A stretch of DNA of 46,468 nt, from positions 10,912,001-10,958,468 of the forward strand of contig NC_135910.1 in NCBI RefSeq assembly GCF_964194155.1, in the 5' to 3' direction. Positions within the stretch are counted from its first letter, which is position 1. Each line of letters starts with the position of its first letter. The notes under the pieces were generated by a model. That model was not told where the DNA came from and ran no database searches. It saw nothing but the letters and a program-made list of their open reading frames with translations. The position numbers were made by a program, and so were the translations under genes. Below are positions 2,635-35,899 of the stretch, in pieces. This DNA comes from Cetorhinus maximus. Lineage: Eukaryota.

Positions 2635-5600
2635 CTACAAACACAGGAGTTCATTGTCAGTCTGTAATAAACTCGTCTTTTTGACCACTACATTTCCCAC
2701 ATCACCCCCTCCCCCACCAGTCCCAAACCCCCAATGAAGACAGTGATTCCCACTGGGGAACGCCTTGCATAGGTATCAGTTACCCTCTTGCTCTCTCACC
2801 CAAGTGATCGTGCTTCATGTCTGATCCCAGACTTGGCATGACATCAGCCTATTGAAATGTAGGCTTCGTCACTCAAACTCATCATACAATAGGGGTTTCA
2901 CTGGACAGTGATCAAGATCAGGAACCCTGGCTGATCTGATCTCTCTCTCCAGCCTTCATTTTCTCCCTGTCCAAAGACTGAAGCCGGTTGTTTGCCACTT
3001 ATTACTGCCCTAACCGGGATCAGCTTGGACTGGAGGCAAGTCTGGTGTCTTCCTTCTCCCTATAGCCTGGTCCCACAGTGGGTGCAGCGTTAGTGAAGCA
3101 AGAACAGACCATGCTGGAAGCCTACAGCAGGAGGAAGGCCATTAAGACTGTAACACTAACTTGCCCATTCTGTGCTGGCACCGAATGACTTGCTGAGTGT
3201 TTGCAGCATTTTCCATTCTTGTTTCAGGTTCCCAGCATCAGCAGTTTTCCTGCTTATTCGTGGCAGGAGGGAGAGCTAAGAGAGGGACCAGGTTTCTACT
3301 GTGTAAACAGTATTGCACAATCTTCTGAGAGCTCCACGGTGACACCCATTGCCCCAATGTGCCATTTAGTGCCCCAGTATGCCAGCAGACATGAATAAGC
3401 AATAAAGATAAAAGAAATAAGCGTAATGAAGTTAAATGCTCTTACTACTGTTGGCATTTCCACAAGCTCAGTCCCCAGATATTGGATCTCTTTCACAATC
3501 GACTTTGGGAAAAATCCAAGAGTTGTTGACTGCTCCCCGAAATAATCACCTTGAACCTAAATACAGACACTGGTTAGTCTCACAGGCACTGGTCAGTCTC
3601 ACAGGCACAGTCTCACAGGCACTGGTCAGTCTCACAGGCACTGGTCAGTCTCACAGGCACTGGTCAGTCTCACAGGCACTGGTCAGTCTCACAGGCACTG
3701 GTCAGTCTCACAGGCACTGGTCAGTCTCACAGACACTGGTCAGTCTCACAGACACTGGTCAGTCTCACACAAGCACAAGTCAATCTCACACACACTAGTC
3801 TGACTCATAGACTGGTCAGTCTCATATATACTGGTCAGTCTCACAGACACAGTCTCACTGACAGTCTCACAGACATTGGTCAGTCTCACAGGCACAGGTC
3901 AGTCACAAACATCAGTCTCACACAAGCACTGCTCAGCCTCAGAGACACTCATCAGTCACAGACAATCATCAATCATCAATCAGAGACATTGTCAGTATCA
4001 CCCTGGTCAATCTCAAGGAAACCAGTCAGTTTCACACAGGCGCTGGTCAGTAACGTAGACACTGTCTCACAGAGACGTTGGTCAGTCTCACACAGATACT
4101 GGTCAGTTACATAGACATTGGTCTGATACAGACGCTGGTCAGTGTCACAAACTGGTCTGTCTCACAGTAACAGATAGGGAGGCGATAGCATAGTTGTATT
4201 GTTGCTGGACTAGTAATCCAGAGACCCACGGTAATGGTCCGAGGACCCGGGTTCGAATCCCACCATGGCAATCCAATAAAAATCTGGAATTAAAAGTCTA
4301 TTGATGACCATGGAACCCATCTGGTTCACTAAAGGAAATCTGTCATCCTCACCAATGTGGTTGACTCTGAAACGACTCAGCTGTATCAAACCACTACAAC
4401 GTTGCAAAACCTTTCATTCTTCTGAACTCTAGAGAACACAGGCCCAGTCTCCTCACTCACCACCCTGACTTGGAAATACATCACTGTTCCTTCACTGTTG
4501 CTGGGTCAAAATCCTGGAACTCCCTGTCTAACAGCACTGTGGGTGGGTGTACATGGACTGCAGTGACCACCTTCTCAAAAGCAGGGATGGGCAATAAATG
4601 CTGGCCTAGCCAGCGATGCCCCACATCCTGTGAAAGAATTAAAAACGAATGTGGTTCTAAGTCAGGATGGTGAGTGGCGGCTTGGAGAGGAACTTCCAAG
4701 TGCTGGTGTTCCCATGTGTCTGTTGCCCTTGTCCTTCTAGGTGGTAGAGGTTGTGGGTGAAGGAGCCTTGGTTGCTGCAGTGCATCTTGCAGATGGTACA
4801 TACACTGCTCCCACTGTGTGTCAGTGGCGGAGGAGTGAATGTTTAAGATGGTGGATGGGGTGCCAATCAAGTGGGCTGCTTTGTCCTGGATGGTGTTGTG
4901 GGAGCTGCACTCATCCAGGCAAGTGAGGAGTATTCCATCACACTCCTGACTTGTGCCTTGTAGATGGTGGGCAGGCTTTGGGGAGTCAGGAGGTGAGTTA
5001 CTCTCTGCAGATTTCCCAGCCTCTGACCTGCTCTTGTAGCCGCAGTATTTATATGGCTAGTCCAGTTCAGTTTCTGGTCAATGGTAACTCTCAGGATGTT
5101 GATAATGGGGGATTCAGCAATGGTAATGCCATTGAACGTCAAGGGAAGATGGTTAGATTCTGTCTTGTTGGAAATGGTCATTGTCTAGCACTGGTGTGGT
5201 ACGAATGTTACTTGCCTCTTATCAGCCCAAGACTCAATGTTGTTCCGGTTTTGCTGCATTTGGACATGGACTGCTTTAGAATCTGAGTCGTCGCGAATTG
5301 TGCTGAGCATTGTGCAATCATCAGTGAACATCCCCACTTCTGACCTTATGATGGAAGGAAGGTCATTGATGAAGCAACTGAAGATGGTTGGGCTGAGGAT
5401 ACTACCCTGAGGAACATCTACAGTGATGTCCTGGGACTAAGATGATTGACCTCCAACAACCACAACCATCTTCCTTTGTGCTAGGAATGACTCCAACCAG
5501 GGGAGAGTTTTCCCCCTGATTCCCATTGACTCCAGTTTTGCTGGGGCTCCTTGATGCCCCACTCGGTCAAATACTGCCTTGATGTCAAGGGCAGTCACTC

Positions 5601-7909
5601 TCACCTCACCTCAGGAGTTCAGCTCTTTTATCCAGTCTCACAGACACTGGTCGGTCTCACGCAGACACTGGTCGGTCTCACGCAGACACTGGTCGGTCTC
5701 ACGCAGACACTGGTCGGTCTCACGCAGACACTGGTCGGTCTCACGCAGACACTGGTCGGTCTCACGCAGACACTGGTCGGTCTCACGCAGACACTGGTCG
5801 GTCTCACGCAGACACTGGTCGGTCTCACGCAGACACTGGTCGGTCTCACGCAGACACTGGTCGGTCTCACGCAGACACTGGTCGGTCTCACGCAGACACT
5901 GGTCGGTCTCACGCAGACACTGGTCGGTCTCACGCAGACACTGGTCGGTCTCACGCAGACACTGGTCGGTCTCACGCAGACACTGGTCGGTCTCACGCAG
6001 ACACTGGTCGGTCTCACGCAGACACTGGTCGGTCTCACGCAGACACTGGTCGGTCTCACGCAGACACTGGTCGGTCTCACGCAGACACTGGTCGGTCTCT
6101 CAGACGCAGAGTCAATCTTACACAGACACGGTTTAATCTCACAGGCAATGGTCAGCCTCACACCAAAACCAGACAGACGCCCAGTCCAAACACTGGCAGT
6201 GGACCCCCCCCAGCGTTGTGCCGCGGTGAGTGCCAGGACCAGGGCTGAGCGAGGAGCCAGTGATCAGTCTCAGCAGCGAAGACCTAGAACAAACTTTAGT
6301 GGAGACTCTGGTCTCAGACTCACAGTCCCTTGCCAGAAGTTGCGTCCTTTTCCTTTGAGTTTTCCGTAAATATAGACGATCTGCCCCTGGCGAATGTTGA
6401 TAAACCTGCAGTCGGGACCCGTGTAATCGGTCAGCGCTCGAGCCATTGAAATGGGATCTACAAGGGAACAGAGGGTACAGTGTCCAGACTGGGGCACCTT
6501 GAGTTCACAATAACCCGGGCATCACTTATCCACGCTATTGGAGGGGGATGAAACCCCACAACCGTCCATGCTCCTGTTCCCTATCCAAGGCACGCACTTG
6601 GATGCTGGGGGGAGGGGGAGGGAACATATCTTTAAAGAGAACAAGTCTACCAACATCCCCCTGTCTGGAAAAACTCAGCAGGTCTGGCAGCATCGGCGGA
6701 GAAGAAAAGAGTCGACATTTCGAGTCCTTATGACCCTTCAACAGAACTGAGTGATATTAGGAGAGGGGTGAAATAGGTGAAATATTTCACCCCTCTCCTA
6801 ACTATACTTCAGTTCTGTTGAAGGGTCATGAGGACTCGAAGCGTCGACTCTTTTCTTCTCCGCCGATGCTGCCAGACCTGCTGAGTTTTTCCAGGTAATT
6901 CTATTTTTGTTTTGAAATTCCAGCATCGGCAGTAGTTTTTTTTGTTTTTATCCCCTTGTCTGGGCCCACACACACACATCAAGAAAGCTTAGGGCAGGCA
7001 TCAAGCTAGCAGAGAAATAAGGAGCCAGTGATGGACAGACACCGTCTAGCAAAGCCCCTGAACAGACTGGGAGACTGGGGGGGGGGGGGGGGGAATACCC
7101 AGCAAGGATTTTCACAGCGAAATATCAGCTTCTGTTTCTGTTCATTACCCCCCACCCACCCACTGCGGTTCATACTTAAATAAGGTGGGACTTTATTTAA
7201 CACTCTTCAAAATTATGAAGGGTTTTGACAGAATAAATCAGGAGAAACTGTTCCTGTTGGGAGGAGGGGGGGTTGGTAAGGAGAGAATTGGCAATGAAAT
7301 AAAAGATGGGTAACTCTTTCGAGTTATCAACAGATCGCACGTAACTCTTTCGAGTACATTCACAGTTCTTGGTTTCCGGGAAACGCTTTCGAGTTTTCAA
7401 CAGTTACAGATTGCAACTCTTTCGAGTACAATCACAGTTCTTGGTTTCTGGGAGTGGGACATGAACCCACAACCCTCTGATTCAAAGGCGAGGGTGCTAT
7501 GAACTGAGCCACAGCTGACGTTGGTGGGGGGGCGGGGGGGGAAGAGGCGAGGTTTGGATAAGGACTTCTATTTACCCAGCAAGATCTGACTGTCTTAAAG
7601 AGTGGGGGATTCACTAGTAATCATCAAAAGGGAACTTCTTCAAAACTCTTCGGGTTTAAACCAAGACACACCCAGGGGAGGGTGAGCACTCGAGGCGATT
7701 ATTGCAGCTGCATTGACTTTGTCTCTGTCTCTCTCTCCCCCTCTGAGGTTTGTTTACTCACGGCTGCATTCTTCGTCCGCACACAGCTTCCTCTCGGCCA
7801 GTCTGTGCCTCACTTCGCCCCGAGCGGACCAGGCGCCACCGGCGCTGAGAACAATCAGGCAGAAGGTCCAGGTCCAGGTCCAGACTGCCCGGGACACCTC
7901 CCGCTGCAT
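2614..7909 (-). CDS. MIA: Melanoma inhibitory activity / CD-RAP, secreted SH3-like protein, 137 aa; complement(join(2614..2634,3446..3556,6324..6457,7762..7909))
   Basis: Spliced product: signal peptide, then KLCADEECSHPISMARALTDYTGPDCRFINIRQGQIVYIYGKLKGKGRNFWQGTVQGDYFGEQSTTLGFFPKSIVKEIQYLGTELVEMPTVDWDFYC*. All introns are GT-AG, phases agree, total 414 nt. Four MIA cysteines present. Position next to SNRPA matches human. Confidence 0.93.
3446..3556 (-). CDS. MIA: MIA coding exon 3
   Basis: tatttag|GTTCAAGGT...ACAGTA|gtaaga; 111 nt, VQGDYFGE...EMPTV. Confidence 0.92.
3565..4167. repeat. 19-bp minisatellite (CACTGGTCAGTCTCACAGG), decaying rightwards
   Basis: Period of 19 at 3621/3640/3659; degenerate copies continue to about 4165. 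Confidence 0.9.
4177..4410 (+). mobile_element. tRNA-derived SINE
   Basis: tRNA-like head with B-box GGTTCGAATCC near 4251; similar to the SINE at 23476. Confidence 0.75.
4455..5630 (-). mobile_element. CR1/L2-clade LINE 3' region (minus 4655-5630; its 3' tail lies on plus at 4455-4650)
   Basis: ORF 4867-5181 (LRVTIDQKLNWTSHI...IYKAQVRSVMEYS) is an RT C-terminal region. Matches the copy at 27670-28300. Confidence 0.85.
5633..6105. repeat. Perfect 21-bp minisatellite (CAGACACTGGTCGGTCTCACG), about 22 copies
   Basis: Identical units read directly; source of the QTLVGLT / RRHWSVS ORFs. Confidence 0.97.
6324..6457 (-). CDS. MIA: MIA coding exon 2
   Basis: cttgtag|ATCCC...GGGACT|gtgagt; 134 nt. 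Confidence 0.93.
6669..6949. mobile_element. Fold-back Penelope-derived insertion (inverted terminal segments, two hammerhead-like motifs)
   Basis: About 6666-6775 is nearly the reverse complement of about 6784-6895. Flanked by ATCCCC(C/T)TGTCTGG at 6655-6668 and 6950-6963. Confidence 0.8.
7440..7517 (-). mobile_element. tRNA-derived SINE head fragment
   Basis: On minus, AGCTGTGGCTCAG...GGGTTCATGTCCCACTCC, similar to the head at 39745. Confidence 0.6.
7762..7909 (-). CDS. MIA: MIA coding exon 1 (signal peptide plus KLCADEECS)
   Basis: ATG at 7909 (in-frame upstream ATGs at 7921 and 7990 are possible); donor AGCC|gtgagt. Confidence 0.85.
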
Positions 7910-8355
7910 CTTGCCTCCCATCCAGCGCCAGAAGTCCACAACCCCTCGGAGTCCGGGGCGAGAGTGGAGGCAGGCTGGGTGAAAATGCACAGTCTGTGCA
8001 CCCCACCACCAGGAGCTGGTTTTTCTTTAATGAGCCAACAAATCTGTGGAATGTTCTTCCTGTCAGGAACTGGCTCCAATCAAAACAAAATAAATAAATC
8101 GCAACAACTGCCTTTTTTTTTTAAACAAAAAGCTAACTCTAAAGCACCCTCTGGGCACGGAATAAACATTTTTTCCCTAATTCTGATGTTTGAGTTGGAT
8201 TGAGTTTCTGATTGGAATGGTTTCGTTTTAACAAGTGCTCTCTCTCTTCTCGACAGCGTATTAGAATGAACCAGACTGATAATACCCCTCACACCCGACA
8301 GTCCCTTTCATACCTTGTGCTGGGGATGGTACACAATGTGTCGGTGTTATGCAAT

Positions 8356-9595
8356 CCCAGGACAGGTACAGCACGGGGTTAGATACAGAGTAAAGCTCCC
8401 TCTACACTGTCCCCATCAAACACTCCCAGGACAGGTACAGCACGGGGTTAGATACAGAGTAAAGCTCCCTCTACACTGTCCCCATCAAACACTCCCAGGG
8501 CAGGTACAGCACGGGGTTAGATACAGAGTAAAGCTCCCTCTACACTGTCCCCATCAAACACTCCCAGGACAGGTACAGCATGGGGTTAGATACAGAGTAA
8601 AGCTCCCTCTACACTGTCCCCATCAAACACTCCCAGGACAGGTACAGCACAGGGTTAGATACAGAGTAAAGCTCCCTCTACACTGTCCCCATCAAACACT
8701 CCCAGGGCAGGTACAGCACGAGGTTAGATACAGAGTAAAGCTCCCTCTACACTGTCCCCATCAAACACTCCCAGGGCAGGTACAGCACGGGGTTAGATAC
8801 AGAGTAAAGCTCCCTCTACACTGTCCCCATCAAACACTCCCAGGACAGGTACAGCATGGGGTTAGATACAGAGTAAAGCTCCCTCTACACTGTCCCCATC
8901 AAACACTCCCAGGACAGGTACAGCACAGGGTTAGATACAGAGTAAAGCTCCCTCTACACCGTCCCCATCAAACACTCCCAGGGCAGGTACAGCACGAGGT
9001 TAGATACAGAGTAAAGCTCCCTCTACACTGTCCCCATCAAACACTCCCAGGGCAGGTACAGCACAGGGTTAGATACAGAGTAAAGCTCCCTCTACACTGT
9101 CCCCATCAAACACTCCCAGGACAGGTACAGCACGGGGTTAGATACAGAGTAAAGCTCCCTCTACACTGTCCCCATCAAACACTCCCAGGACAGGTACAGC
9201 ACGGGGTTAGATACAGAGTAAAGCTCCCTCTACACTGTCCCCATCAAACACTCCCAGGACAGGTACAGCACGGGGTTATATACAGAGTAAAGCTCCCTCT
9301 ACACTGTCCCCATCAAACACTCCCAGGGCAGGTACAGCACGGGGTTAGATACAGAGTAAAGCTCCCTCTACACTGTCCCCAAACACTCCCAGGGCAGGTA
9401 CAGCACGGGGTTAGATACAGAGTAAAGCTCCCTCTACACTGTCCCCAAATACTCCCAGGGCAGGTACAGCACGGGGTTAGATACAGAGTAAAGCTCCCTC
9501 TACACTGTCCCCAAATACTCCCAGGGCAGGTACAGCACGGGGTTAGATACAGAGTAAAGCTCCCTCTACACTGTCCCCAAATACTCCCTGGGCAG
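8356..9595. repeat. 69-bp tandem repeat, about 18 copies (last four are 66 bp)
   Basis: Unit CCCAGGACAGGTACAGCACGGGGTTAGATACAGAGTAAAGCTCCCTCTACACTGTCCCCATCAAACACT; explains the 431-aa ORF. Confidence 0.97.
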
Positions 9596-9892
9596 GAGCA
9601 GCCAGGTTAGCTACAAAGTACAGCTCTCCTTCCCTATTACACCAATGTAATACACTGTTGCCAGACTAGCAGTCCCATGGCTGCTTTAAGTGCCAATTTC
9701 CAGCTGTTGGCTGGAGCTGCAGACCTGCCCACTCAGCAGGTTAAGTCCCATAAATCAGACAACCAGGCAAAGCTGTTTATGAACCCCGCTCTCAGATCCC
9801 CACATCCATCAGCACCAACTGGCAGCATTAACTCTGTAGAACCAAGCGCCAGAAATAAAGAGCAGTGAGGGAGGAGGCACTAAATGCAGGAA

Positions 9893-10300
9893 GTTTGAGG
9901 ACTCTGGGTCTATACTCGATGGAGTTTAGAAGGATGAGGGGGGATCTGATTGAAACTTACAGAATACTGAAAGGCCTGGATAGAGCGGACGTGGGGAAGA
10001 CTAGGACCCGAGGGCACAACCTCAGAGTAAAGGGAAGACCTTTTAGAACAGAGATGAGGAGAAACTTCTTTAGCCAGAGAGTGGTGAATCTATGGAATTC
10101 ATTGCCACAGAAGGCTGTGGAGGCCAGGTCATTGAGTATATTTAAGACGGAGGTAGATAGGTTCTTGATTGGTAAGGGGATCAAAGGTTACGGGGAGAAG
10201 GCGGGAGAATGGGGTTGAGAAACTGATCAGCAATGATTGAATGGCGGAGCAGACTCGATGGGCCGAATGGCCTAATTTCTGCTCCTACATCTTATGGTCT
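9893..10300 (+). mobile_element. CR1-type LINE 3' fragment
   Basis: ORF 9865-10218 (LGLYSMEFRRMRGDLIETY...VVNLWNSLP) and CGATGGGCCGAATGGCCT tail. Confidence 0.92.
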
Positions 10301-12341
10301 AAACACCCCAGTGTTTCTGCTGATACTGAAGTAAACAATCAGCAACTCAATGCAGTGAAGCTGCTGCTCTGGGGCATCCTGCACTGCCTGGTGTATTCAG
10401 CAAACAAGATCTCACCTTGCACACACCCTCGGAGGCTCAGGATTTATTAAAACGGCATTGGGAAAAGTAGCAAGACTACATTTGATGCACATCTTGCAGA
10501 TTTAGAGCTACAGACACATGTTTCTTGGTGCCTTTTCCTAACTTGATCCCACAATCTTGAAGCTTACTGCCTGTTATGCTAAGCGCTCTGTTCAAAGTAC
10601 CATTTGAACGGAGGCTGCAACAGCAAACATCTTACACCAAAAGAAAAGTGAAACTGCAGACTATGCTGGAAAGAATCGGGGGATGGTGGTGAACGGTTGG
10701 TGCTGCACTCAAACCCCAGCAGCTTTCACAGGCTGTACACCCACCCACTCACTCTTTCCTCCCCTTACTTATGGTGCATCGTTCCAGTTCCCCCTCAGGC
10801 CCAACCCAAGGCCCCACTGTTGCTATGGCACAACGAATAGTAAATGCTGAACTGCTCAAATCCCAGAGGAAACTTTAAAACAGTTGCCACAACTGTTTTG
10901 CAATTTGTATTTTATTTCGAGATGTGTGCCTTGAATTCGGTAGCAACTCCACTCAGACTTAGATTTTTTTTAAAAAACAAAATAAACTCAACATTCAATT
11001 CATGAAAGAGATTTTAAGCACATACATAGGTCTACGAATTACTACCATAATTCCTAAAACCCCTAATTAATCTGGCTCCCAGTTACACCTCCATTAAGGG
11101 GACAGTAAAACAAAATGGATTTAAACAGACCCAGGCAAAGCACACAGTACCCTGGACAGTGATATTCAAAGTGAGTCTTCTTAGCTTCGGTTCCTGTAGA
11201 CAGCAACTTAAGACAGAGCCTGGAAGCTTTCCACATGTTAGACCTTAGAATGCCTTCTCCCTTACACATAACCTCATCTCCTTTATCGGTTTCTCCTTTA
11301 ATGCAGACTCCATTGCTCCCATATGCTTTTGTGACTTTACTTTTCTCATGATGAGTACCATGAAAGACCCAACCTTTGGGAAAAATAAACACTTCTTTGG
11401 CTTAGCTTCTCTTAGCTAGGTGTAACATCTTACCATCTCTGAAATTCAAACTACTGAATCTAAAAATGCATATTTTCACCACCTCATTTTAAAACTTCAG
11501 CCATGTTTATGTATTTAACATTTCAAACCTAGCTCCCCTTTTGATATCTCAAAAGCTCCAGACCAGCTGTCTCCAATCAAATTAAATCCCCCCCCCACCA
11601 CACACACACACATCTACACAGAGCAACTAATCCAAACCCCACTATTAACCTACCTTTACAACAATATTATGAAAATTATATATTTTCATGACAACTGTTC
11701 AAGAGCCCAGCAGACCAATGTGAATTTCTGGTAGTTTCCCTCAGTCCCAATATTCTGCCAAAGCAGTATGAATCTCCGCTCTGTCACCTCCTGTATCTGT
11801 ACAGTACACAGCAAGTAAAAGCACTCCCACCGGAGACCCATGGGTTGGATTGTGTCAGCTACTGGGAGCTTTTTTCCCTCTCTAGGGAAAAAAAAACTGG
11901 GAAGGTGACCCAATAAATGTTTCATTATAAAAGGGTAGATAGGAAACGTTTCCACTTGTAAGGGGGGGGGGGGGGGGTGGAGAACAATCAAATCAGTCAC
12001 CAATAAATCCAATAGGGAATCAGGAGAACCTTCAGCTAGGAGAGCAGTTAGAATGCAGAATTCCACAGAGGAGTGCGGCAAAGAACAGGTGTCTTTATAA
12101 GGGGAAGTTAAGTAAAAAAAAAGTGAGAAAGGAGGTTATGTTGAAGAGGGCTGGAAGCAGCTTGTGTGGAGAATAAACACCAGCATGGACCAATTAGGCT
12201 GAACAGCTTGTTCTGTGTATCGCACTCGCATATCCTGTGTTGTGAAGGCCAAGCAGCCAAGCTCTATTCGCCTGCAAGTTAAGAGAGCTCAGTGATAAAT
12301 AAACACGTTCAACAGGGTGGTTATTTAAAAAAAAAAATCTT

Positions 12342-12347
12342 TTTATT
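12342..12347 (-). promoter_or_regulatory. SNRPA polyadenylation signal AATAAA
   Basis: About 22 nt downstream of the PIE hairpin and followed by a U-rich tract on minus. Confidence 0.75.
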
Positions 12348-12369
12348 CATCGGTTCATTCAGTAAGTTT

Positions 12370-12416
12370 GAAAGCTCCAGGTGCAATGTCACTGAGACTC
12401 TGGGTGAACAGCTTTC
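12370..12416 (-). promoter_or_regulatory. U1A polyadenylation inhibition element (PIE) in the SNRPA 3' UTR
   Basis: Minus-strand RNA GAAAGC UGUUCAC CCAG A GUC UCAGU GAC AUUGCAC CUGG A GCUUUC: three stems and two 7+1 internal loops, one with the perfect U1A box AUUGCAC. Same layout as the human PIE. Confidence 0.88.
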
Positions 12417-12908
12417 TTATGGTGTGATTAAGCCAAACTGTTGCTTGCCTCAGCCAGTCAGACACATTCATTCAAAAATATGGCCAAACGGGGGCAACCA
12501 AATCTAAAATAATGCCATGAGTGCAGATTTAAAGTCCATCCAATTTCTTCAGTCAGGATATGGCTGCTCCTGGATTATCATTCAAAAAAAAAAAGGGAGG
12601 GGGAATTATTTAATTTGATGGACCCAGGGTGGAGTAGAGCAAGGCGACGGTGAAACACCCACACCGCAATCCGAACAGCCTTCAGACCACAGGAAGCTCG
12701 CCTTAGCAGCATCTCTCAGAGACTCACCCGGGTCTGAACAATCATCCGATGGGCAGGGCAAAGCTGAGGAGCCTCCTCGTTCAACACTTACCTGAAGCAT
12801 CAGAACTTTTAAATCTAATACAGACCAGTTACTGCACAATTTAAAAAAATGAAAACAACAGCTTTGGAAAACAAAGCCGGAATTAACCAGTTTGATCCTC
12901 CCGACCCC

Positions 12909-17866
<4,958 letters not shown>

Positions 17867-18021
17867 TCAACTTCAAAGTCGTGAGTTCATACCCAACCAC
17901 GGCAAGTTCTGAAATTCAATAAATCTGAAAAGGTTTTTGGTTGAGACCAAGGGAAGAAGTGACCAGAAGTTCATCAGCAAAATTCAACTAGTTCACCATG
18001 TTCTTCAGGAAAGGAGCCCCT

Positions 18022-18665
18022 GAACCACACTGGGCTCAAATACCCAGATACCCCCCCCTCCGAACCACACTGGGCTCAAATACCCAGATACCCAACCCCC
18101 GAACCACACTGGGCTCAAATACCCAGATACCCTCCCTCCGAACCACACTGGGCTCAAATACCCAGATACCCTCCCTCCGAACCACACTGGGCTCAAATAC
18201 CCAGATACCCTCCCTCCGAACCACACTGGGCTCAAATACCCAGATACCCTCCCTCCGAACCACACTGGGCTCAAATACCCGGATACCCCCCCCTCCGAAC
18301 CACACTGGGCTCAAATACCCGGATACCCACCCCCCGAACCACACTGGGCTCAAATACCCACCCCCCGAACCACACTGGACTCAAATAACCAGATACCCAC
18401 CCCCCGAACCACACTGGACTCAAATAACCAGATACCCACCCCCCGAACCACACTGGGCCCAAATACCCACTCCCCCCGAACCACACTGGGCTCAAATACC
18501 CAGATACCCACCCCCCGAACCACACTGGGCTCAAATAACCAGATACCCACCCCCCGAACCACACTGGGCTCAAATACCCAGATACCCCCCCCGCCGAACC
18601 ACACCGGGCTCAAATAACCAGATACCCACCCCCCGAACCACACTGGGCTCAAATACCCAGATACC
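18022..18665. repeat. About 39-bp minisatellite (CGAACCACACTGGGCTCAAATACCCAGATACCCWCCCYC), about 17 copies
   Basis: Period of 39 (18101 to 18140) with some shortened units. Confidence 0.93.
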
Positions 18666-18809
18666 ACCGCCCCCCCCCCCCCCCAATAGACAGGTCAGTC
18701 CCCAAACTTCCCCCACAGTCGGGTCAATCCCCAATTATCCCCCCCCAAACAGGTCAGACCCCAATCCCCCCCCCAAAAAACAGGTCAGACAATCCCCAAT
18801 TCTCCCCCC

Positions 18810-19610
18810 CAAACCCCCGGACGTGAACCGGAAGCTGCCGCCCGGCGGCGGGACCTTTAACCCCTGCCCCCCCATCCCACCCCACCCCCTACCAGCCGCC
18901 AGAAGCCTGCTCCGTGTAAAATCGGTAAGCTCGGTCGGCGCTTTCCGGGAAGGGACGGGGGGGGGGCGCGGTACCAGCCGCCACACACGGGGCGGGTCGG
19001 ATTAAGGCGGCCCCGCGGGGTCTCGGCCGCCGATGGCGCCGGGAGACTGACCGATGGACGCGGATTGTGTCCCGGATTCCAACCGCCAAAAGCCGTCCGC
19101 TCGGCTCGAAGCCTGACCGGAAATCCCGCCCCCTCCTCGTTGATTGGTCAGCTCTGCCTACAGCCCGCTTTCTGATTGGCTAGGGAGTCCTGTCAATCAG
19201 TGAGGCGGGCTCAAAGCCGCCGGTTGACGGAGAAGGAAGGACGGGACGAGACGAGACCGGCCGACCGACCGACCGACCGACCGACCGACCCCGCCCCTCA
19301 CCCACCGGCTGAATCCCTCCCGAATCCCCGCCCGTCTCCCTCCGGCGGAAAAACGGCGGTCGCTCGCACGCTCCGGTTTTCAAATCGTCTCATTCCCGCC
19401 CCACCCCCTCTCCCTTTAAGGGGTCTGGGCTGATTGGATGAGGCGAACCGAAGGAGCCGAGCTGATTGGCGGGTTAGGACCCCCCCCCACCCCCCCACGT
19501 GGGGGCGCAGCCTCCGGGCCAATCACAGGAGGGCTCCGACCGCCTAATGTTCCAGCGCTGCCCGCCGGATTTTAACGGCCATTCAGCCCGTCGTGTCCGC
19601 ACCGGCTCTC
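18810..19610. promoter_or_regulatory. CpG island / shared promoter region of divergent SNRPA and ACTMAP
   Basis: Very CpG-dense. CCAAT boxes near 19143, 19175, 19433, 19465 and 19519; ETS CCGGAA near 18828 and 19117; GC boxes; YY1-like GATGGCG at 19032. Confidence 0.85.
19259..19290. repeat. (CCGA)n microsatellite, about 7-8 units
   Basis: Read directly. Confidence 0.9.
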
Positions 19611-33660: not shown

Positions 33661-35201
33661 AAACAAAAACAGAATTACCTGGAAAAACTCAGCAAGTCTG
33701 GCAGCATCGGCGGAGAAGAAATCAGTTAACGTTTCGAGCCTTCATGGCCCTTCGGCAGAACTGGAGCATAGTTAGAAGAAGGGAGAAATATAAATTGGTT
33801 TAAGGTGGGTGGGGGGGGGGGGGGGGGGGAGTGACACATTGAGGGTGTGGTGTGGTGATTGTGGAGATGAGCAGATAATCAAAAGATGTCACAGACAAAA
33901 GGGTCAAAGAGGTGTTGAAGGTGGTGGTATTTGTCTGAGAAAAGTGCTAATTAAGAATGGAAGACAGGATATTCAAAGTACAGCTCTAGTGGGGGTGGGG
34001 TGGAAAGACTAAAGGTTTTAGTTTTAGATTTAAAAATAATGGAAATAGGTGGGGAAAGAAGAATCTATATAAATTATTGAAAAAAAAAGCGGGGCGGGGG
34101 GGGGATGAAACGGGGTGGGGATGGGGGAGGGAGTTTAAGATCTAAAGTTGTTGAATTCAATATTCAGCCCGGAGGGCTGTAAAGTGCCTAGTCGGAAGAT
34201 GAGGTGCTGTTCCTCCAGTTTGCGTTGGGCTTCACTGGAACAATGCAGCAAGCCAAGGACAGACATGTTGGCAAGAGAACAGGGTGGAGTGTTAAAATGG
34301 CAAGCGACAGGGAGGTTTGGGTCTTTCTTGTGGACAGACCGCAGGTGTTCCGCAAAACGGTCGCCCAGTTTGCGTTTGGTCTCTCCAATGTAGAGGAGAC
34401 CGCATTGGGAGCAACGAATGCAGTAGACTAAGTTAGGGGAAATGCAAGTGAAATGCTGCTTCATTTGAAAGGAGTGTTTGGGCCCTTGGACGGTGAGGAG
34501 AGAGGAAGTGAAGGGGCAGGTGTTGCATCTTCTGCGTGGGCATGGGGAGGTGCCATAAGTGGGGGTTGAGGAGTAGGGGGTGATGGAGGAGTGGACCAGG
34601 GTGTCCCGGAGGGAACGATCCCTACGGAATGCCGTCAGGGGGGGTGAAGGGAAGATGTGTTTGGTGGTGGCATCATGCTGGAGTTGGCGGAGGATGATCC
34701 TTTGAATGCGGAGGCTGGTGGGGTGATAAGTGAGGACAAGGGGGACCCTATCATGTTTCTGGGAAGGAGGAGAAGGCGTGAGGGAGGATGCGCGGGATAT
34801 GGGCCGGACACGGTTGAGGGCCCTGTCAACGACCGTGGATGGAAAACCTCGGTTAAGGAAGAAGGAGGACATGTCAGAGGAGCTGTTTTTGAAGGTAGCG
34901 TCATCAGAACAGATGCGACGGAGGCGAAGGAACTGAGAGAATGGGATGGAGTCTTTACAGGAAGCGGGGTGTGAGGAGCTGTAGTCGAGGTAGCTGTGGG
35001 AGTCGGTAGGCTTGTAATGGATATTGGTGGACAGTCTATCATCAGAAATTGAGACAGAGAGGTCAAGGAAGGGAAGAGAAGTGTCAGAGATGGACCATGT
35101 GAAGATGATGGAGGGGTGGAGATTGGAAGCAAAATTAATAAATTTTTCCAGGTCCCGACGAGAGCATGAAGCAGCACCGAAGTAATCATCGATGTACCGG
35201 A
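33661..35201 (-). mobile_element. Young 5'-truncated Penelope-like retroelement (RT C-terminal half plus GIY-YIG endonuclease)
   Basis: Stop-free frame 35199 to 34135: RYIDDYFG...LPFLDL...YKPTDSHSYLDYSSSHP...NLVYCIRCSQCGLLYIGETKRKLGDRFAEH. 11-bp TSD CACATAATTAA at 33650-33660 and 35202-35212. Confidence 0.93.
33723..33763 (-). ncRNA. Minimal type I hammerhead-ribozyme-like motif (variant core)
   Basis: CAGUU CUGCCGA A GGGCC AUGAA GGCUC GAAA C GUU AACUG: 5-bp stem I, 5-bp stem II, palindromic ACGU in place of stem III. Confidence 0.6.
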
Positions 35202-35899
35202 CACATAATTAAGTTGATTGTCAAAGAACTTGAGGCAACATGAGGAATTTTAAAAATGTGTAATGAGTGGTTAGGATTTGGAATGCACTGCCTGATAGGG
35301 TGGATAGATTTGACTGTAGCCTTCCAATTTCCTTTTGATAACTACTTAAGAAAAAATTTCAGGAATATGGGAAGGATTGGGGAGTGAGACCAGCTGAATT
35401 GCTCTTTGAAAGAGATGATGTAAACTCAATGGGCAGAATGACCTCCTTCTGTGCCATACTATCCTATGACATTGGGAGTACAAACAGGGGACGACAGCAG
35501 TACTCTCCTTACAATGCGGGAGGCCATTCGGCCTATTGTGCCTGTGCTGACTCTATCTAATTAATCCCACCCCTATGCTCTTTCCCCTTAGTCCTGCAAA
35601 CTTCTCCTAAGTATTTATCCAATTTCTTCTCAGAAGTTAATCAATCTGCTTCCACCAGCCTTTCAGGCCAGTGCATTCCAGATCACGGTCACATGTTGCG
35701 CAAGAACATTTTTCATTTCCCCGTTGGCTCCTTGCCGATTATCTTAATCCTACATCATCTGGCTACTGATCCATCTATCAACAGGTTTCATAGAACTTGT
35801 ACAAGGCAATTGCTACCGACTGTTTCCCCTCTGCCTCCACCTAGCAGTTCAGAGAGGAGTAACTGAAAAACAACACTAGGAGTACAAGAGTCTTATTGG

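Follow-up and report, generated by a model that had tools for sequence, protein, structure and literature searches.

The SNRPA locus

The window, by which we mean the whole 46,468-nucleotide stretch of Cetorhinus maximus DNA analysed in this work, contains the SNRPA (U1A) gene in six exons on the minus strand, with a coding span running from 17734 to 12909. Coding exon 1 (17662..17734, 73 nt), which begins with the start codon at 17734, was delimited by its translation and its GT donor. Exon 2 (16550..16722) encodes the core of RRM1 with its RNA-binding surface. When compared with human U1A in PDB, 56 of its 57 residues are identical, S48N being the sole change, and its bit score to U1A is 110.7 as against 84.6 to U2B''. 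Exon 3 (15431..15598), which was compared with human and sawshark U1A, encodes helix C and the dimerisation and PAP-inhibitory segment (human residues 93-119). Residues 83-112 match human U1A apart from two substitutions, and the nearest named relative of this exon is sawshark U1A, with 88% over all 56 aa. The remaining exons were assigned to a Met/Pro-rich linker (exon 4, 14276..14449, from its translation and AG/GT ends), the start of RRM2 (exon 5, 13649..13737), and the end of RRM2 (coding part of exon 6, 12909..13068; Pfam RRM_1, E 5.3e-7). The TGA stop codon at 12911-12909 is followed by a 3' UTR of 590 nt.

An exon of a YIF1-family gene (39559-39164, minus strand; Pfam YIF1, E 3.4e-17) was found upstream of SNRPA, and downstream an exon (7918-7757, minus strand) that probably begins a MIA-like gene. 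The top PDB match of the latter exon is melanoma-derived growth regulatory protein (E 0.12), and it has no match in Pfam. We take the human gene order to be SNRPA followed by MIA. Long tandem-repeat arrays at 531-1096, 5530-6366, 8270-9607 and 17992-19002 give rise to spurious open frames, and fragments that are presumably CR1-type and other retroelements occur near 1151-1513, 9859-10215 and 34138-35208.

The PIE and its two boxes

An element resembling the U1A PIE lies about 500 nt into the SNRPA 3' UTR, within the last exon. The mammalian PIE carries the boxes AUUGUAC and AUUGCAC, binds two U1A molecules cooperatively to inhibit poly(A) polymerase, and is followed by a weaker AUUAAA; in the textbook account, this switch requires both U1A molecules. 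On inspection of the minus strand, every PIE segment named in the original prediction proved to be where it had been placed. Read from the 5' side, these are the 5' strand GAAAGC of the outer stem (12411..12416, pair probabilities 0.93-1.0) and box 1 in the degenerate form UGUUCAC (12404..12410), which was assessed by sequence, Rfam alignment, a read contig and the predicted fold. The next part (12388..12403) comprises CCAG (12403-12400), a lone A (12399) and the inner hairpin GUC-UCAGU-GAC, in which GUC (12398-12396) and GAC (12390-12388) enclose a 5-nt loop, and it agrees with the Rfam consensus except in this apical loop. Box 2 in its canonical form AUUGCAC (12381..12387) stands opposite A12399. 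The element is completed (12370..12380; Rfam and fold) by CUGG (12380-12377), a lone A (12376) and the 3' strand GCUUUC of the outer stem (12375-12370). Box 2 is the single perfect box within the 3' UTR; no intact replacement box was found elsewhere in this UTR, in which matches of 6/7 at 12840 and 12742 each lack A6.

Comparison with Rfam, which the original prediction had proposed, was made with 851 bases against 4227 families and returned RF00460 (U1A_PIE) over the full model length at 36.1 bits (E 5.2e-6). This score is below the gathering threshold of 50 bits, and the window contains no Rfam match at gathering level. A search of the whole genome (4.0 Gb) with the same model gave three matches, of which the SNRPA element is the top one (E 0.0058) and the remaining two both fall in tandem-repeat DNA. 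We consider the PIE match to be beyond chance because of its Rfam E-value, its rank as the best of three matches genome-wide and its position in the last exon of SNRPA; by its sequence and its place in the SNRPA 3' UTR, it is the shark orthologue of the U1A PIE.

Several observations accompany these searches. One tandem repeat (L011:1300-1700; G000:C6, ~77.685 Mb) reaches 31.9 bits with the U1A_PIE model; its unit contains CATTGTAC followed by CCAG or CTGG, and the many box-1-like heptamers within the array probably arose by chance. The second Rfam match of the query, ST7-OT3_1 (E 5.2), was dismissed as a chance match. A PIE motif scan of metagenomes gave 30 matches, none of which (0/30) had the box-1/outer-stem context on inspection, and a PIE motif scan of viral contigs gave no matches. 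Just upstream of the PIE, a hairpin at 12456-12425 on the minus strand has a folding energy of -10.4 kcal/mol with a z-score of -2.65 (2/200 shuffles), the stretch having been picked after its fold was seen; it contains no U1A box.

Conservation within the element is uneven. With box 1 and the apical loop set aside, all 29 core positions are identical to the Rfam consensus, whereas box 1 mismatches AUUGYAC at three of seven positions (Fisher p 0.005). Relative to AUUGCAC, the changes in box 1 are A1>U, U2>G and G4>U; U3, CAC and the 7-nt length are kept. The scaffold and box 2 are thus conserved at the sequence level and box 1 is not, in agreement with the original prediction that a single canonical box is left. 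The possibility of a sequencing error in UGUUCAC, which that prediction had raised, was examined with an independent 275-nt read contig from the same species (depth 13.5), which spans 12319-12592 and shows no substitutions and one extra homopolymer base. This contig derives from one read set, possibly obtained from the assembled animal or in the study of it. An assembly error is therefore unlikely. The contig ends at the predicted cleavage base (12319), with positions 12266-12318 and 13080-13800 uncovered; contigs cannot reveal an RNA end, and this stop was given no weight.

The fold was originally described as intact, with its geometry kept, and in this respect folding gave a different picture. 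The first base of box 1 (U12410) is predicted to pair with A12376 with a probability of 0.93-0.98 in all three contexts, so that no open 7-nt loop is left, as compared with 0.0 in a two-box control in which box 1 was swapped in silico for the box-2 heptamer. When box 2 was held open as a stand-in for bound U1A, the minimum free energy structure of the two-box control was the canonical 7x1/1x7 arrangement, whereas that of the real sequence was not, with a probability of 0.35 for CCAG/CUGG. Unconstrained folding with ViennaRNA fails to reproduce the established PIE fold, as it assigned 0.08-0.11 to CCAG/CUGG in real and control sequences alike, and because of this agreement the low value is, from the modelling, best read as a limit of the model and no evidence against the PIE fold. 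All pairs of the three-helix scaffold are possible and identical to the consensus; the outer and inner helices are predicted (0.88-0.92 for the inner helix), and the middle one has a probability of 0.08 without constraint, rising to 0.35 when box 2 is kept open. The folding z-score is -1.42 for the whole element and -0.43 with flanks. In the model, CCAG/CUGG, which closes box 2, is thus disfavoured by the real sequence, and box 2 could be weakened in this way as well.

Whether U1A would still read UGUUCAC can be judged from hairpin assays, in which A1G costs 5.0 and G4A 6.4 kcal/mol out of ~13 (PMC2203988, excerpt), values obtained in the context of the U1 hairpin and with replacement bases other than those in UGUUCAC. 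Of the three purines on which U1A depends most, box 1 has lost two, A1 and G4 (PMC2203988, excerpt). Because these key purines are lost while the RRM1 exon is 56/57 identical to human, the binding of a second U1A at box 1 appears unlikely, and we infer one U1A per RNA; a single U1A is reported, in an excerpted source, to be too little for efficient inhibition. Co-evolution of U1A or U1 snRNA towards UGUUCAC was rejected, as RRM1 is near-human and stem-loop II of U1 snRNA is canonical, with AUUGCAC in 18 of 20 copies as scored; of the other two, one is a variant and one was scored in the wrong orientation. These 20 copies (L043-L062) were examined out of at least 42 U1 snRNA-like copies above the Rfam cut-off; in the loop of stem-loop II, most of them follow AUUGCAC with UU instead of UC, and L058 has GUUGCAC.

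The upstream U1 site, poly(A) signals and retrocopies

A feature absent from the original prediction is a U1 snRNP site, or 5' splice-site motif, CAG/GUAAGUGU (12784..12794, minus strand), in which 10 of 11 positions equal the consensus and the eleventh would form a G-U pair with U1 snRNA. The complementary U1 5' end ATACTTACCTG is present in 19 of the 20 U1 copies, the twentieth having been scored in the wrong orientation. Over both strands of the whole 46-kb window together, the sequence CAGGTAAGT occurs a single time, with 0.002 occurrences expected in the 590-nt UTR. This site lies 117 nt past the stop codon and 367 nt ahead of the PIE in the same exon. In human, the U1 site is within some tens of bases of the PIE, and in Guan et al. 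2007 it is reportedly repressed via base pairing with a neighbouring strand. The shark site is predicted to be paired in all three local folds; the hairpin involved is no better than shuffles (z -0.69).

Other candidate processing signals lie between this site and the PIE. An AUUAAA (12609..12614) with a U-rich run after it is a possible alternative poly(A) signal, and a pyrimidine run with CAG (12570..12606, 20/27 pyrimidines overall) is a weak candidate 3' splice site for a donor at 12791. The donor motif is stronger than all five real SNRPA donors. Next to its AG, the candidate acceptor (12572-12570) has 4 pyrimidines in 11 positions as compared with 8-10 of 11 in the five real acceptors of the gene. 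The read contig shares just 23 bases with this acceptor region, too few for bridging.

Downstream of the PIE, the AAUAAA that the original prediction placed about 22 nt away was recovered at 12342..12347, 22 nt after the element; it is followed 23 nt on by a CA and then by a GU/U-rich stretch. The predicted cleavage CA (12319-12318) and the downstream element (12314-12295; together 12295..12319) were recognised from the sequence and their use is putative. This distal poly(A) site appears well formed, with all three textbook parts. An AAUGAA at 12359-12354 (minus strand) lies 10 nt past the PIE stem, approximately where the Rfam model has AUUAAA, and may be a decayed older signal, AAUAAA being 12 nt further on.

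The genome also contains seven dispersed copies of the SNRPA mRNA end (L002-L008; G000 C4, C8, C10, C11, C12 and C18), which are 82-95% identical to it. In two of them (L003 and L004) exon 5 is joined to exon 6. All seven end within 22 nt of the parent (12821-12800), have unrelated flanks and reach neither the U1 site nor the PIE. An AU-rich hairpin in the proximal 3' UTR (12808..12845, minus strand) has a folding energy of -10.1 kcal/mol and a z-score of -3.04 (1/200 shuffles), for a stretch selected after its fold was seen. Six of the seven ends (12821-12810) fall in the 3' arm of this hairpin and the seventh (12800) just past it. Two differences from the present parent are common to the copies, which therefore record an earlier state of the UTR.

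None of the seven retrocopies has an A tail or an upstream AAUAAA. For comparison, we used control retrocopies of RPL21 (three), RPS3A (two) and TPT1 (two), leaving out the 3' end of RPL21 fragment L067 and the parent-gene loci; a run of at least five A just after an AAUAAA-type hexamer was found in 6/7 controls and in 0/7 SNRPA copies (Fisher p 0.005). On these grounds, the idea that the retrocopies end at a proximal poly(A) site was set aside. Mimicry of a CR1-type LINE tail by the end region is not significant, as scores at least as good were reached by 69 of 500 shuffles and by 131 of the 478 background windows; the best single alignment in this test (40) exceeds that of the eight top UTR windows listed. 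The SNRPA retrocopies outnumber those of RPL21, RPS3A and TPT1 (2-3 each), the latter having been found by a different, protein-family search.

Tailless retropseudogenes with clustered ends have been attributed to internal priming (PMC5322556, excerpt). The SNRPA copies are likewise 3'-truncated at one cluster and have no oligo(A) tail. In contrast, those of the excerpt are described for therian L1 with ends in single-stranded regions, whereas the SNRPA ends lie mostly in the 3' arm of a hairpin. More speculatively, the fact that no tailed copy derives from the distal site would be in keeping with SNRPA RNA having existed as an unpolyadenylated pool.

Interpretation and comparison with known systems

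Our best reading, to which we assign a probability of about 0.45, is an attenuated one-box PIE that works with the upstream U1 snRNP site. It is based on the degenerate box 1, the canonical box 2, the conserved stems, the unchanged U1A and U1 stem-loop II, and the near-perfect U1 site. The low chance expectation for this site (0.002), the depletion of such motifs close to stop codons in human 3' UTRs (PMC4380460, excerpt) and the lack of any further intact U1A box in the UTR also speak for it. Surplus U1A would bind box 2 as a single molecule, and box 1 would stay empty at physiological U1A levels. A lone U1A would present one PAP-inhibitory motif, so that the PIE by itself would restrain polyadenylation at the AAUAAA only weakly. 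The missing strength would be provided by U1 snRNP, which through U1-70K could act at the upstream site in a manner similar to the mammalian synergy between U1 site and PIE. The net outcome would be a milder negative feedback on U1A mRNA, requiring both free U1A and U1 snRNP. Several points weigh against this reading. The U1 site is 367 nt from the PIE, farther than in human, and is predicted to be base-paired in all three folds, though in a hairpin no better than shuffles; the motif at 12794 could also serve as a genuine splice donor. That box 1 keeps CAC and its length of 7 nt is as compatible with residual binding as with a recent change. The substitution costs come from the U1 hairpin and from other replacement bases, and the poor prediction for CCAG/CUGG could mean a weakened box 2. 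Moreover, about 6% of human 3' UTRs carry a consensus 5' splice-site motif anyway (PMC4380460, excerpt).

The alternative that survives best, though we consider it unlikely, is a recent and near-neutral decay, in which box 1 was lately mutated in this lineage, relatives keep AUUGYAC and the weakened PIE has little consequence. The surroundings of box 1 would then be expected to look as they do, still at consensus and including the outer stem, which is needed by a two-box element alone, and the three changes within four bases could be a single event. That all three are transversions while the U1A protein barely changed, and that one of them creates a new Watson-Crick pair, speaks against such decay, neither being a strong argument. 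If the change did occur recently in a single lineage, the shark copy would simply extend the range of a known element.

The original prediction had suggested a one-site or cooperativity-dependent variant of the switch. Its one-site part agrees with our best reading; the cooperative part is rather improbable. It would have a second U1A load on box 1 through protein contact with the box-2 U1A, giving a steeper switch with a higher threshold. The retained length, U3 and CAC of box 1 and the conserved dimerisation segment are consistent with such loading, and binding to the PIE is described as cooperative (PMC2874999, excerpt). However, box 1 has lost A1 and G4, at 5-6 kcal/mol each of ~13, and U2 in addition, its position 1 is predicted to be paired, and the unchanged RNA-binding surface of RRM1 shows no compensating change.

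It is quite improbable that control has moved upstream, with 12791 serving as the donor of a 3' UTR intron and/or transcripts ending at the AUUAAA at 12614, in which case the PIE would act on no more than a minor, longer isoform and box 1 would have been free to decay. An isoform with this intron would be a candidate for nonsense-mediated decay, as its junction lies 117 nt after the stop codon. The strength of the donor motif relative to the five real donors, the candidate acceptor at 12572-12570, the AUUAAA with its U-rich run and the failure of all seven retrocopies to extend to the PIE are all compatible with such a shift. Nevertheless, the acceptor is poor beside its AG (4/11 pyrimidines), the tailless retrocopies stop at neither of the candidate sites, in keeping with internal priming, none of the three textbook parts is missing from the distal site, and box 2 and the stems are fully conserved.

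With a similarly low probability, sharks in general might have a selected one-box design, in which U1A on box 2 and U1 snRNP form a joint PAP-inhibitory complex that senses free U1A and assembled U1 snRNP; the tailless retrocopies would then be a germ-line trace of unpolyadenylated SNRPA RNA, and the two-box human form would perhaps be derived or reinforced. We regard it as very improbable that UGUUCAC results from an assembly error or represents a private allele, given the contig over 12319-12592 with no substitutions at depth 13.5 and the improbability of three adjacent substitutions as a sequencing error, even if the single overlaid read set possibly comes from the assembled animal.

Compared with the U1A PIE of Rfam RF00460 and the human PIE (PDB 1DZ5 complex), the shark element is found in the same gene and at the same place, and the consensus is matched by its AGC/GCU, CCAG/CUGG and GUC/GAC segments, its two lone nucleotides and box 2. 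Its layout is also that of a published two-box U1A aptamer (PMC7102939, excerpt). In contrast, box 1 is AUUGUAC in RF00460 and the human PIE and UGUUCAC in the shark, with its first base predicted to be paired, and the RF00460 model has an AUUAAA ~10 nt away where the shark has an AAUAAA 22 nt away. The shark element thus shares the gene context and box 2 with RF00460, and differs in its score below the cut-off and in lacking two open boxes. Automated annotation misses the shark PIE as a consequence of the sub-threshold score. The shark element is homologous to the U1A PIE and probably functions as a weakened form of it.

In mammals, the PIE is preceded by a conserved 11-nt site resembling a 5' splice site, to which U1 snRNP binds and which works jointly with the PIE (Guan et al. 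2007, as cited in an excerpt of PMC3157836). The shark likewise has an 11-nt site of this kind ahead of the PIE, within the terminal exon and predicted to be paired. However, its distance from the PIE is 367 nt, it is a putative counterpart of the mammalian site, and the predicted sequestering stem is without statistical support. The late 3' UTRs of papillomaviruses also share with the shark gene a terminal exon in which a site similar to a 5' splice site precedes a poly(A) signal; there, U1 snRNP inhibits PAP via U1-70K (PMC5071671 and PMC2874999, excerpts). In the shark, such a site would be combined with a U1A box in a cellular autoregulatory gene.

No report of a chondrichthyan PIE or of a natural one-box PIE was found in the literature searched, the primary PIE papers lying outside that search, and PMC4114683 mentions neither the PIE nor sharks. 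A natural one-box PIE that is otherwise intact would illustrate a retuning of the loop or its rebalancing towards U1 snRNP. The original prediction that the feedback loop is old in jawed vertebrates gains a shark orthologue; this is not the first sign of such age, as a PIE is already annotated in killifish, a teleost (PMC5584509, excerpt). The shark copy extends the range of the PIE to cartilaginous fish and places this element in the jawed-vertebrate ancestor, in which the partner U1 site was probably present too.
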